Below, in pieces: positions 1,580 to 63,519 of a stretch of 64,000 nucleotides of DNA. The DNA lies in the IMG/VR virus record IMGVR_UViG_3300028559_000033, positions 4,613-68,612 of that record; one strand, given 5' to 3'. The position numbers and the translations under genes were made by a program. How positions within the stretch are numbered: the first letter of the stretch is position 1; each line of letters opens with the position of its first letter. The DNA comes from a virus. The notes beneath the pieces are model-generated. The model did no database searches and was not told the DNA's origin. It was given only the letters and a program-made list of their open reading frames with translations.

Positions 1580-1670
1580 TGGGAAAGAGAGGAATCGAAC
1601 CTCCGATGGTGCTAATGTAACAGTTTTACAGACTGCCGCCCCACATATTGCCGACAGGAGCCACTTTCCC
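1580..1670 (-). tRNA. tRNA-Tyr(GUA)
   Basis: Acceptor GGGAAAG/CTTTCCC; anticodon arm GCAGT-CTGTAAA-ACTGT; long variable arm; enlarged D-loop. Confidence 0.88.
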
Positions 1671-1731
1671 ATTAACTAGACGATGTTTTTTCTACCAAAA
1701 AGAAATTTTGTAGTTGCTGAATCGTCTAAAG

Positions 1732-2046
1732 TGGGACATCTGCGATTCGAACGCAGGACTAATCGGTTAACCTACTACTTCTACTCTCGTAGACCATCAA
1801 AGATGTTGTAGTCTGGACTATATCATCATCTACAGCATTATCCGTTTAGATGCCTTTCGTTTAGTCTCTGAGGCTCCCACTAACGGTTGCCTGCTGATTG
1901 CCCAATCTTTAGAATTATTACTACTTTACAGTGAGTATCTAAAGCTCTAAGGGTGTTCCAGCATACAGAAAGGTTCTACTTTACATATTTCGATGTAAGC
2001 ACTCCTAACAAAGCCGAATACTCTGACCAGACTGAGTTAATGTCCC
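1732..2046 (-). tRNA. tRNA-Lys(UUU) interrupted by a group I intron (exons 2046-2011 and 1770-1732)
   Basis: Joined exons give GGGACATTAACTCAGTCTGGTCAGAGTATTCGGCTT|TTAACCGATTAGTCCTGCGTTCGAATCGCAGATGTCCCA, a clean cloverleaf with loop CTTTTAA, G1-C72 and A73. Confidence 0.9.
1771..2010 (-). mobile_element. Group I self-splicing intron, 240 nt, no ORF
   Basis: Core motifs P (ATGCTGGAA), Q (AATCAGCAGG), R (TCAGAGACTAAA) and S (ATGATATAGTCC) occur in order. P1 pairs exon GCTT with intron GAGT, giving a U.G pair at the 5' splice site. The intron ends in G. Confidence 0.92.
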
Positions 2047-2065
2047 AAAAAAGATGTGTATTTAG

Positions 2066-2077
2066 TTGTCAAGGTTC
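2066..2077 (-). promoter_or_regulatory. rRNA-type boxA antitermination element upstream of the tRNA operon
   Basis: Minus strand GAACCTTGACAA(CTAAATA), about 20 nt before the first tRNA. Resembles the cyanobacterial rrn boxA GAACCTTGA(A/C)AA. Confidence 0.6.
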
Positions 2078-2212
2078 TGGTTGAAAAGCTGTGTTTCTCT
2101 CACCACCCAATCAATATACCACCTCTGGTCGTCCAGTGGGGACATAGTGTGCCAGTTCAGAAATTGGCCTTCGGGCGGTGCATATAATAAGGAACGCCTG
2201 CGCGTATCATTA

Positions 2213-2241
2213 AAAGTAACTCACATTGGCTGAGAAGTCAA
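2213..2241 (-). promoter_or_regulatory. sigma70-like promoter for the tRNA operon
   Basis: TTGACT-17 nt-TACTTT on the minus strand. Confidence 0.55.
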
Positions 2242-2277
2242 GAGTGAGGAGGACAGTGTGAAAAGTGGCTAAACTAC

Positions 2278-2313
2278 AAAAAAAGAGAGGTCTTTTTAGG
2301 TCCCTCTCTTTTT
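2278..2313. terminator. Bidirectional intrinsic terminator
   Basis: AAAAAAAGAGAGG...CCTCTCTTTTTT inverted repeat with A and T tracts on either side. Confidence 0.7.
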
Positions 2314-2473
2314 GTTGTTTGTATTTTTAGCTTTTCTTCTAACTATACAATTCAACAAAAAGAGACTCGCCCATAAACCAATCGGCTTTAGGGGAATAAT
2401 CTGTTTTTGGTTGAATATGTAGAGTCTTCATTGGAGGTTCAATTTGTCCTATAGTATATATACAAGTTTTTTC

Positions 2474-3232
2474 TTATTTTGTCAACTTTGAAGTTGAACT
2501 AAAAACCTTAACCTTTTTCTTCAGATACCTCTCAACTGCTGTTTTCGCTGGTGCATCAGGATTTTCTTTATACTTTTGTTGAATCTTTCTTAAATTTTCA
2601 ATCTCAGCACCCTCAACTCTCAATCCTGCTTTTCTATCACTTTCGGCTTTAGCTCTAAGAGTATCGGAATTTGCACGACCTAAAAGTTTTGCAGTTTTAG
2701 TTTGTCTCTTTTGTCTTGAAGAGCCTGGTTCTTTTTCTCTCAACTCATCACTTTTTCTTAGTGCTTTACCTGCTGGAGAAGAAACTCCTTTAGGATGATT
2801 ATAAGTAGCTGGACGAGGACTATAAAGATTTACTGCTCCTTCAAGAATACTTTCTCTCCAATCTTCACTCATTGCAGACATAATTGAATTTGCGGATTCT
2901 TCTGTATTCGCATATCCTTCATCAAGAAGATGAGTAAGAATGATATCATAGATGTCTAAATCTTCTTTTCTATACTTAGACTTAGCTTTGGCTGATTTTT
3001 TATTATGAGAATTTGCAATTTTTTCCATTTTATTGATGTGGTCAAATTGTTTCTGAGAAGCCTCAAATGGGTCTTCATTTCCCTTAGGGTCTATGTGCTC
3101 ATCTTCATATCCATGAGCATCTGAAGTCTTTCTAGAAGCCTGACGAATCATTTTACCAACAGGAAGCTTCTTATAACCTTCACAAACTTCTAAATAAGCT
3201 TCTTGTAAATTGTGAATATCAATATGGTCCAT
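2474..3232 (-). CDS. Hypothetical protein, possible internal head protein
   Basis: 252 aa, charged; carries LQEAYLEV and HLLDEGYA..EESA..IM.AMSEDWRESILE motifs typical of cyanomyovirus late proteins; TATAAATA at 3262-3269 upstream. Confidence 0.6.
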   Translation of the reverse strand: MDHIDIHNLQEAYLEVCEGYKKLPVGKMIRQASRKTSDAHGYEDEHIDPKGNEDPFEASQKQFDHINKMEKIANSHNKKSAKAKSKYRKEDLDIYDIILTHLLDEGYANTEESANSIMSAMSEDWRESILEGAVNLYSPRPATYNHPKGVSSPAGKALRKSDELREKEPGSSRQKRQTKTAKLLGRANSDTLRAKAESDRKAGLRVEGAEIENLRKIQQKYKENPDAPAKTAVERYLKKKVKVFSSTSKLTK

Positions 3233-57962: not shown

Positions 57963-58685
57963 AATTTTAATCTTCCTTTAGTATATCCACACCGTATCTA
58001 TTCGCCAACGACAATTAGGTTTTCTATAATACCATTATTGACCCAAATTCTCTTAGGGCGAAGTTTTGCTTTTTGACTTAGTTTTGTAATAGTTTCAGGT
58101 GAATGTTTTTTCCCATACATTGGATTATTTTTTCCACTAACATTGTGGTGGTTTCTACTTATCCGTTTTCTAGTCTCATAACTAAGTTTTTTCCCCAAAT
58201 GTTTAGCTCTTATTTTTTCTTTAGTCTCATCCAACATACTTCTACCAATTAACCAAGGTTTGGGCTTCCCCCTAACTGCCTCACTCATTCGCTTCTTTGT
58301 TTCATCACTATGTAATTTACCGTACATTCCAGTTCTACGTTCCTTATGTAATTGTTTGGAACGTATAGAACATTTTTGTCGGTATTCCTTAGTTCTTTCC
58401 CACCCAAAAACCATATCTCCACCATCAGTTAAATTGTATCCATGTGGAACTTTACTATTATATTTTTTAATATAATACTGTTCCAACTCATACGCCTTTT
58501 CTATAGCATTAACATCTTCAATTAAATTAATATGAAAATTGCCCATACCATATTTTTTAATTGCTTTAGTTAAAAGAAATCCCCCTATAAGTATGTTGGC
58601 AAAATCTCTTGACAATATCAAATTTTGTCATCCCAACATAATGTTTTCTATTATTCAAATTAGTAATTAAGTAAATATTGTACAC
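57959..58685 (-). pseudogene. Degenerate GIY-YIG (Seg-like) homing endonuclease with NUMOD3-like repeats
   Basis: GTG start at 58685 gives MYNIYLITNLNNRKHYVGMT..KRF..H; frameshift in the G5 run at 58581-58585; in-frame TAG at 57998-58000 followed by IRCGYTKGRLKL* ending in an ATGA overlap with the next gene. Confidence 0.8.
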
Positions 58686-62851: not shown

Positions 62852-63213
62852 TATATTTTTCTAGGTCTATAGACTACCAATTCATCATCAGCAATGAATT
62901 TTTGCCATTCTATAATAGCGGATAGTCGTTCAGTTGTAAAGAAATCTTGTTGAAGATACCATTCTGACCAATAAGTGTGTCCTTTGTCTAGATTACAACT
63001 CTCACACGCACATATCAGGTTCGTAACTCTATCAGTTCCACCTTTAACTTTAGGTGTGATGTGGTCTAGAGTCAAATTTATATCACTTCCACAATACGCA
63101 CACTTATTGCCCCAATGGTCTTTGATTAACTGTTTCCATAATTTCGTTGCTTGAGATGAAGATGTTGCATACAAATTAAAGAGATAGTCTTGAGGGCAAT
63201 CGTAGAGTTTCAT
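62851..63213 (-). CDS. HNH endonuclease
   Basis: CAYCG....LTLDHI.P..KGG.D...NLI.AC..CN..K. Confidence 0.92.
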   Translation of the reverse strand: MKLYDCPQDYLFNLYATSSSQATKLWKQLIKDHWGNKCAYCGSDINLTLDHITPKVKGGTDRVTNLICACESCNLDKGHTYWSEWYLQQDFFTTERLSAIIEWQKFIADDELVVYRPRKI

Positions 63214-63249
63214 AGTATGAAACGAACTACATCTATTTATTTGAATATC

Positions 63250-63519
63250 TTATCCAAATGTTGGTGTAAGTTGAACCCATTGTACTGAATCTCCATCATT
63301 TACATAGCGATACGTGATTAATTTTGATGTACTGGTATCTGTCCACTCATCTCCAGCTAGAGGGTTTGATGGTTTTATATTAGAATAAGTATGCGTATAA
63401 CCAATAGGACTAGAAGCTATAGACTCAGGAATTATTTCCCATTTGTTTGTTGTAATACTCCACTTCCATCTTGGAGATGAATTTGGGTCTTCTGGCCAAA
63501 ATTGCTCAGAAACACTCAT
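63250..63519 (-). CDS. Small virion-associated hypothetical protein
   Basis: Trp-rich; PSNP..GD.W.D...Y.ND...QWV pattern seen in fibre-associated proteins. Confidence 0.65.
   Translation of the reverse strand: MSVSEQFWPEDPNSSPRWKWSITTNKWEIIPESIASSPIGYTHTYSNIKPSNPLAGDEWTDTSTSKLITYRYVNDGDSVQWVQLTPTFG

Follow-up and report, generated by a model that had tools for sequence, protein, structure and literature searches.

A Group I Intron Splitting the Anticodon of a Phage tRNA-Lys(UUU) Gene

Introduction

Four classical bacterial tRNA settings of group I introns, all IC3, are recognized by Williams (2020), who raised the known total from 4 to 21. According to the review by Hausner et al. (2014), all phage introns then known lay in protein-coding genes, despite the many tRNA genes that phages carry. 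A locus in a viral record, at one end of a 64,000-nt stretch (hereafter "the window", the whole of the DNA analyzed), raises the question of whether a phage tRNA gene can be interrupted within its anticodon by such an intron, which tRNA would be restored by its removal, and why the intron is there. An earlier reading made from the sequence alone (the sequence-only reading) had proposed a 240-nt group I intron after U34 of a tRNA-Lys(UUU).

The analysis reported here confirms that the locus is a tRNA gene carrying a 240-nt group I intron. It is very probably a functional, ORF-less, self-splicing intron of the small bacterial tRNA type, inserted between U34 and U35 of a phage tRNA-Lys(UUU) and likely to be a selfish passenger that spreads laterally. 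Judged from sequence comparisons, the element would add to the known small self-splicing tRNA introns, and its setting, in phage tRNA genes and in Lys(UUU), appears to be under-reported. A literature search, with most subscription journals outside its scope, returned no report of a phage tRNA or tRNA-Lys group I intron, including after 2014; the Lys.3Ug setting may already be among the 17 new settings of Williams (2020).

Results and Discussion

The Split Gene and Its Phage

The record containing the window is about 32% complete according to CheckV, which implies a genome of about 200 kb, and most of the window encodes a tail and baseplate module. Among cultured phages, those that best match its tail protein are T4-like cyanomyoviruses, at no more than 42% identity, and 422 of the 481 records matching this protein are named Synechococcus, Cyanophage or Prochlorococcus; these matches make a cyanobacterial host plausible. 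We regard the phage as a lake-water myovirus of about 200 kb, distantly related to the T4-like cyanophages. Its split tRNA-Lys gene heads an array of at least 23 tRNA genes, and the fragment carries 22 ordinary tRNAs, including a tRNA-Lys(CUU) and an intronless tRNA-Leu(UAA).

The Rfam group I model RF00028 (Intron_gpI) matches positions 2020..1793 over its entire length (model positions 1-253 of 253) with 75.2 bits, well above its gathering score of 50 bits, and an E-value of 2.8e-17; this is the sole group I match within the 68.6-kb viral record. The 5' exon (2046..2011, minus strand) terminates in CUU, with U34 at 2011, and the 3' exon (1770..1732) begins with UUAA and ends with a discriminator A at 1732, its variable loop being 5 nt long. 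Both the joining of the exons in silico and the alignment with an intronless ortholog in a kin phage (G010, see below) place the insertion in the anticodon loop, between nucleotides 34 and 35. The proposed size and position of the intron are thus borne out by the full-length RF00028 match, which also supplies the covariance-model check that had been suggested, and by the join 2011|1770, which ARAGORN accepts as a clean 76-nt tRNA-Lys(ttt). The intron was also rightly described as lacking an ORF: none of at least 40 aa lies within it on its own strand, and on the other strand only two, of 42 and 43 aa, extend over its edges. The coordinates are collected in table 1.

Table 1. Coordinates of the split tRNA gene and of the structural elements modeled in its intron (window positions)
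Feature	Position	Strand	Basis or remark
Split tRNA-Lys(UUU) gene, first acceptor base to discriminator A1732	1732..2046	−	ARAGORN intron-mode ends and scripted join
5' exon: acceptor, D arm, 5' anticodon stem, C32 U33 U34	2011..2046	−	Read directly, joins tested
Group I intron, 240 nt, ORF-less, ending in ωG1771	1771..2010	−	RF00028
3' exon: U35 U36 A37 A38, 3' anticodon stem, variable loop, T arm, acceptor, A73	1732..1770	−	
P1: exon GCUU (2014-2011) / guide GAGU (2004-2001), wobble U2011·G2004 at splice site	2001..2014	−	
P10 guide half UUAG, pairing with 3' exon UUAA 1770-1767	2005..2008	−	4-5 pairs
P2 hairpin, 1998-1993/1986-1981	1981..1998	−	6/6 pairs change on both sides
P3 5' strand, pairing with 1858-1853	1968..1973	−	5/6 pairs change on both sides; 100% of cells paired
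P4-P5-P5a-P5b domain	1892..1963	−	Structural model
P4; P5	P4 1963-1958/1897-1892; P5 1953-1951/1903-1901	−	P4 invariant
P5a; P5b	P5a 1944-1938/1913-1907; P5b 1937-1934/1922-1919	−	P5a: 7/7 pairs change on both sides
P6 hairpin	1872..1891	−	Structural model and alignment
P7 5' strand (1866-1862), then P3 3' strand (1858-1853); pseudoknot core	1853..1866	−	
P8 hairpin	1827..1852	−	Structural model and alignment
P7 3' strand, within family motif J8/7-P7-P9	1816..1820	−	17-nt motif common to viral tRNA-Leu(UAA) introns
P9 three-way junction	1774..1812	−	Followed by two bases and ωG1771
P9; P9a; P9b (GAGA loop)	P9 1812-1808/1778-1774; P9a 1805-1802/1798-1795; P9b 1793-1789/1784-1780	−	

Structure, Covariation, and Predicted Splicing

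The structure was modeled by hand with 73 pairs, comprising P1, P10, P2 to P9, P5a/b, and P9a/b, with P7 as a pseudoknot, and was compared with an alignment of ten Lys(UUU) introns of at most 300 nt (nine distinct rows). In this model 91.5% of the cells are paired, against 34-44% when the partners are slid by one to three columns, and both partners have changed in 34 of the 73 pairs (5-12 in the slid controls); because the model derives from the window's own sequence, the first of these figures is inflated and the second less so. The covariation score was reached by none of 500 shuffles. The compensating changes are concentrated in P2, P3, P5a, P9a (4/4 pairs changed on both sides), and P9b (5/5). 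All five pairs of P7 are invariant in the nine distinct rows, and P4 and P7, being invariant, testify to conservation and provide no covariation evidence. The pair at the 5' splice site is U·G in seven of the nine distinct rows and U-A in the other two, the terminal ωG (G1771) is invariant in all ten aligned introns, and P10 is paired in 75% of cells across the alignment. Taken together, these comparisons over ten related introns lend strong support to the predicted P1-P10 structure. The ordered P, Q, R, and S motifs noted earlier correspond to P4 (1963-1958/1897-1892) and P7 (1866-1862/1820-1816), the U·G pair claimed for P1 is U2011·G2004 in a helix of 4 bp, and the terminal G is G1771.

Catalysis is inferred from this structure and its conservation. 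Folding of the precursor would pair the exon bases G-C-U-U (2014-2011) with the guide G-A-G-U (2004-2001), and free guanosine would attack after U2011, held in the U·G wobble. ωG1771 would then occupy the G-site in P7, the adjacent guide bases would align the 3' exon UUAA by forming P10, and ligation of the exons would produce the loop CUU+UUAA. Until the intron is removed, the tRNA would not be in working form. None of the 18 runs listed for the locus is RNA, which is not evidence of absence.

Different Affinities of Intron and Exons

With a co-occurring phage (L228) the intron shares 92.5% identity and the tRNA-Lys exons only 73-75%, all stems except the D stem differing by compensating changes. 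The orthologous site is polymorphic, since it contains the intron in the window and lacks it in the syntenic G010; a search for an intronless allele in relatives, as suggested by the sequence-only reading, thus found one that is syntenic, 88% identical, and reads UUU. The two histories are therefore incongruent: the intron is nearest to that of L228, whereas the exons are 88% identical to the intronless gene of G010 and 74.7% identical to those of L228. Four lake metagenome runs contain an L228-type allele, whose coverage across the intron is several-fold that of the window's flanks and which then continues into its own exons. Six further metagenome contigs are all of the L228 type, with introns 97-100% and 3' exons 87-100% identical. 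Within this type, substitutions in the exon stems are compensated on the pairing strand, a sign that the tRNA is selected to work.

The contrast between high intron and low exon identity suggests lateral, DNA-level spread between co-infecting phages, and faster evolution of the exons could alternatively cause the higher identity of the intron. A recent hop from the Leu(UAA) intron of a kin phage was rejected, because the window's intron falls in a separate Lys set (see below). An intronless joint of the window's own phage was not seen in the contigs of the four lake runs, which is not evidence of absence. Exact-match scans, from which records of the phage's own genome may be excluded, returned no hit to a 26-nt stretch of the 5' exon in viral or metagenome contigs, and none to a 25-nt stretch of the core in viral contigs.

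An ORF-less intron would need an endonuclease supplied in trans to be mobile by homing, and Hausner et al. (2014) describe collaborative homing as the pairing of an ORF-less intron with a free-standing endonuclease. The present locus resembles that arrangement in having an ORF-less intron and a free-standing HNH gene in the same array, and differs from the phage introns treated there in that its host gene encodes a tRNA. Pfam found no endonuclease domain in the eight ORFs beside the locus. The HNH gene (247 aa; L002/G000 2048-2791, plus strand) lies just outside the window, about 3.6 kb from the intron, within the tRNA array and in the opposite orientation, and matches phrog_10822 (E-value 4e-39) and Pfam HNH (22 bits). 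Homologs of its HNH core occur about 0.3-0.4 kb from the split tRNA-Lys genes of L221 and L222 and also in the tRNA array of G011; they were not found on L228 or in G010, most of these records being fragments. This gene is a candidate helper for intron mobility, a role that its distribution neither supports nor excludes.

Two other segments of the window may be mentioned here. A weak match to a GIY-YIG endonuclease (23.2 bits), interrupted by two TAA stops, lies on the minus strand at 58536-58682 (G000 63148-63294) and may be a decayed homing endonuclease. A segment of about 120-130 nt (~2837-2956), inside an ORF at 2474-3232 (minus strand), occurs in two copies in L228 (79% identity). In each of the four lake runs its depth exceeds that of the flanks several-fold, and loose ends are numerous; it represents a repeated or mobile module, or else a domain with a wide distribution.

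Function, Selfishness, or Decay

Selfishness is the most likely explanation: the intron would be a passenger spreading laterally among co-infecting lake phages. That it is instead kept for a function is unlikely, even if several functions can be imagined: it might delay the supply of tRNA-Lys(UUU), shield the gene or its precursor RNA against an anticodon nuclease or the endonuclease of a rival phage, or release a useful excised RNA. In favor of a function, tRNA-Lys(UUU) is the cleavage target of PrrC and tRNA arrays are contested by homing endonucleases such as SegB, and the intron is more conserved than the exons in seven comparisons. The predicted mature loop is, on the other hand, the ordinary CUUUUAA, so that the spliced tRNA would gain no visible protection; G010 manages with an intronless tRNA-Lys gene; and such introns are patchily distributed (in Lys in the window, in Leu in G010 and G033), as selfish elements usually are. 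PrrC, which the sequence-only reading had brought up, is background only: no observation ties the intron to anticodon nucleases.

Somewhat less probable still is that the intron is a decayed, non-splicing relic and the locus a tRNA pseudogene. The phage also has a tRNA-Lys(CUU), its host supplies its own Lys tRNAs, and splicing is a prediction, all of which would fit such a loss. Decay is nevertheless hard to reconcile with core helices that are all intact in the window, with a full-length RF00028 match well above threshold, with compensating changes in P2, P3, and P9b between close relatives, or with the persistence of a near-identical intron in phages that co-occur in abundance and have retained the tRNA stems of their exons.

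Which tRNA Is Restored

In a scripted series of 30 joins, ARAGORN accepted not only 2011|1770 but also 2012|1771, as a 76-nt tRNA-Asn(gtt); this join shifts both splice sites upstream by one base (cleavage after U2012, ωG at G1772), and the 22 ordinary tRNAs of the fragment include no other tRNA-Asn. Ranking the joins by P1 and P10 with a free 3' splice site failed, spurious joins winning even in textbook Leu introns, and the 3' site was therefore fixed by homology, using the rule of the family that two bases separate the P9 3' strand from ωG (P9-NN-ωG). Under this rule the Lys(UUU) join, which forms four pairs in P1 and four to five in P10, is the only valid one in the window, and all 15 other members with the same 3' end are Lys(ttt).

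The kin phage G010, whose tail protein is 55% identical to that of the window, provides the second argument. It carries an uninterrupted, syntenic tRNA-Lys(UUU), 88% identical to the spliced tRNA (66 identical bases over 76 aligned columns), which reads directly from the end of the window's 5' exon into the start of its 3' exon; the acceptor stem and the variable loop are identical in the two genes, and the same unusual Tyr-like tRNA gene comes directly after both. With the tRNA-Asn of G010, the window's tRNA shares just 67% identity. The P9-to-ωG spacing and the UUU of this intact ortholog exclude the Asn junction, which the sequence-only reading had named as the result that would count against it, and we consider a tRNA-Asn(GUU) highly improbable. 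Three independent lines, namely the P1/P10 geometry, the homology of the 3' end, and the intronless ortholog, thus select Lys at the level of sequence. The discriminator is A73, and in Escherichia coli A73 suits Lys and G73 suits Asn. Comparison of the spliced tRNA with the phage's own tRNAs does not discriminate (identities of 0.671 with Ile and 0.667 with Lys(CUU)), and RNAfold, run without constraints, gives the spliced RNA a minimum-energy structure that is not a cloverleaf, a result judged uninformative for an unmodified tRNA.

Standard tRNA finders miss or mislabel the gene. In default mode ARAGORN reports eight tRNAs in the window and none at 1732..2046, and the Rfam tRNA model reports no match at the split gene, as had been anticipated for routine tRNA scans. 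ARAGORN in intron mode, which had been proposed as a check, gives the correct gene ends and fails on the identity: it forces a 37/38 intron of 221 nt and labels the gene Ser(UGA). A protein-spliced, archaeal-type intron in a tRNA-Ser(UGA) has a negligible probability, as this reading takes 19 nt of the intron's 3' end for a long variable arm and comes from a program that tries fixed loop positions only (it likewise mislabels known Leu(UAA) introns as "Tyr(ata)"), and it is ruled out by the match of the insert to a full group I ribozyme in RF00028, by the join with a fixed 3' site, and by the G010 ortholog.

Related Introns in Viral and Bacterial tRNA Genes

Group I matches were present in 7 of 50 kin records, and two of the nine matched loci are tRNA-Leu(UAA) genes with a classical intron. 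A 17-nt motif common to these kin Leu introns and to the window's intron was found in at least 119 viral stretches. We examined 83 segments, made up of the motif matches listed, the two kin loci, and the window, some of them possibly duplicates; among the matches listed, 55 of the 83 lie in tRNA genes and 53 could be joined into a tRNA by fixed rules. Within the same listed set, 32 of the joined rows are Leu(UAA) and seven more, labeled "Tyr(ata)", have a Leu(UAA) alternative join. The other 14 listed rows comprise three with anticodon UCA, three Arg(UCU), two Thr(UGT), and single cases of Asn, Met, Phe(AAA), anticodon CUA, a doubtful Lys-labeled row (L163), and the window itself; three of the 14 were judged unreliable, the Thr(UGT) row L145 and L163 being Leu-like and the Phe(AAA) row L159 having no P1.

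Several of these split genes deserve mention in their own right. Four are suppressor-like, three with anticodon UCA (L094, L113, and L154), which would read UGA, and one with CUA (L155), which would read UAG. Introns of the same family also occur in L092 and L126 (Arg(UCU), after U33), L117 (Asn), L129 (Met), and L164 (Thr), and other loop positions of viral tRNAs are occupied too. L123, L143, L145, and L170 have the anticodon UAA in tRNAs of 73-77 nt that lack the long variable arm expected of tRNA-Leu.

A separate census of tRNA-Lys, based on a pattern tied to the UUAA 3' exon, found a tRNA-Lys(UUU) split after nucleotide 34 in nine of ten bacterial MAG contigs (six Poribacteria, Patescibacteria, Berkelbacteria, and one unclassified) and in six of eight further viral contigs. 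In a tree of 51 introns, which left out introns longer than 300 nt, exact duplicates, and one doubtful row, and in which mislabeled Leu rows were relabeled, the window's intron belongs to a seven-member Lys set (support 100/100) on a long branch (0.88), consisting of four viral introns and three from MAGs of candidate-phyla type. A second Lys group of two or three members (L222, L224, and L227) nests among Leu introns, which implies that Lys was colonized at least twice, with two label changes. The earlier description of the host tRNA and genome type as unusual is fair to the classical literature and overstated in view of the data, given the 21 settings of Williams (2020), the 15 further Lys(UUU) cases, and the dozens of viral tRNA introns.

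The window's intron resembles the tRNA-Leu(UAA) introns in its insertion between nucleotides 34 and 35, in the pairing of exon CUU with guide GAG, in the 17-nt J8/7-P7-P9 motif and the P9-NN-ωG ending, and in being ORF-less and of about 200-250 nt. It differs from them by an extended P5a/P5b arm, by its place in a separate long-branch set, and by its P10 guide, which is UUAG rather than AUU because the host tRNA is Lys. With the other Lys(UUU) introns of MAGs and viruses, L228 being the nearest, it shares the tRNA, position, P1, and ωG context, whereas exon identities are only 60-75% and the Poribacteria introns are longer (323-378 nt). The introns of Azoarcus tRNA-Ile(CAU) and Agrobacterium tRNA-Arg(CCU), which are "5Ug" settings, are likewise small and ORF-less, lie in the anticodon loop, and have a P1 of 3-4 bp, but they follow the third anticodon base and reside in bacterial chromosomes.

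Unannotated tRNA introns are also present in GenBank phages, namely a cultured jumbo phage of Agrobacterium, Atu_ph07 (NC_042013; L270 696-1057), and three metagenomic genomes of huge phages. In Atu_ph07, ARAGORN in intron mode finds a tRNA-Leu(UAA) with a 278-nt intron of this family, over whose 3' exon a "hypothetical protein" CDS (gp154) is annotated. Rfam at its gathering threshold gave no match on this locus, although ARAGORN in intron mode and the family motifs show the intron. Split tRNAs of this kind recur in phages and in some bacteria, for the most part without annotation.

Implications for Phage tRNA Repertoires

A broader reading, which we put forward tentatively and hold to be possible rather than probable, is that group I introns are common and overlooked in phage tRNA genes, that the Lys lineage is now moving between co-infecting phages, maybe mobilized in trans, and that annotation pipelines undercount such genes. 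If so, one Lys(UUU) lineage would be common to candidate-phyla bacteria and lake phages and would move between phages at the DNA level, free-standing endonucleases of phage tRNA arrays might mobilize introns in trans, and standard pipelines would undercount phage tRNA repertoires, suppressor-like tRNAs included. Default finders miss or mislabel split tRNAs, and this biases inventories of phage tRNAs, arguments from codon usage, and the search for suppressor tRNAs. The textbook view of four bacterial tRNA settings and of phage introns confined to protein genes is out of date. The locus also offers a natural experiment, with intron-plus and intron-minus orthologs and the same intron in a diverged tRNA in the same lakes. 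Its compact, 240-nt predicted ribozyme, with the same CUU target as the Anabaena intron and another P10, would suit comparisons of splice-site selection.

Atypical tRNAs Near the Split Gene

Two further observations concern the array itself. Directly downstream of the split tRNA-Lys, at 1582-1671 (minus strand), a type II tRNA-Tyr(GUA) with a 16-nt D-loop can be folded by hand; it is missed by ARAGORN and gives a weak tRNA-Sec match in Rfam (31.6 bits). At L002 3173-3256 (minus strand), between two tRNA-Ser genes, a tRNA-like match below threshold (25.2 bits) may represent one more atypical tRNA. The Tyr-like gene is conserved with compensating changes after the tRNA-Lys of G010 and is 80% identical to an unannotated stretch in Synechococcus phages B3 and B23.
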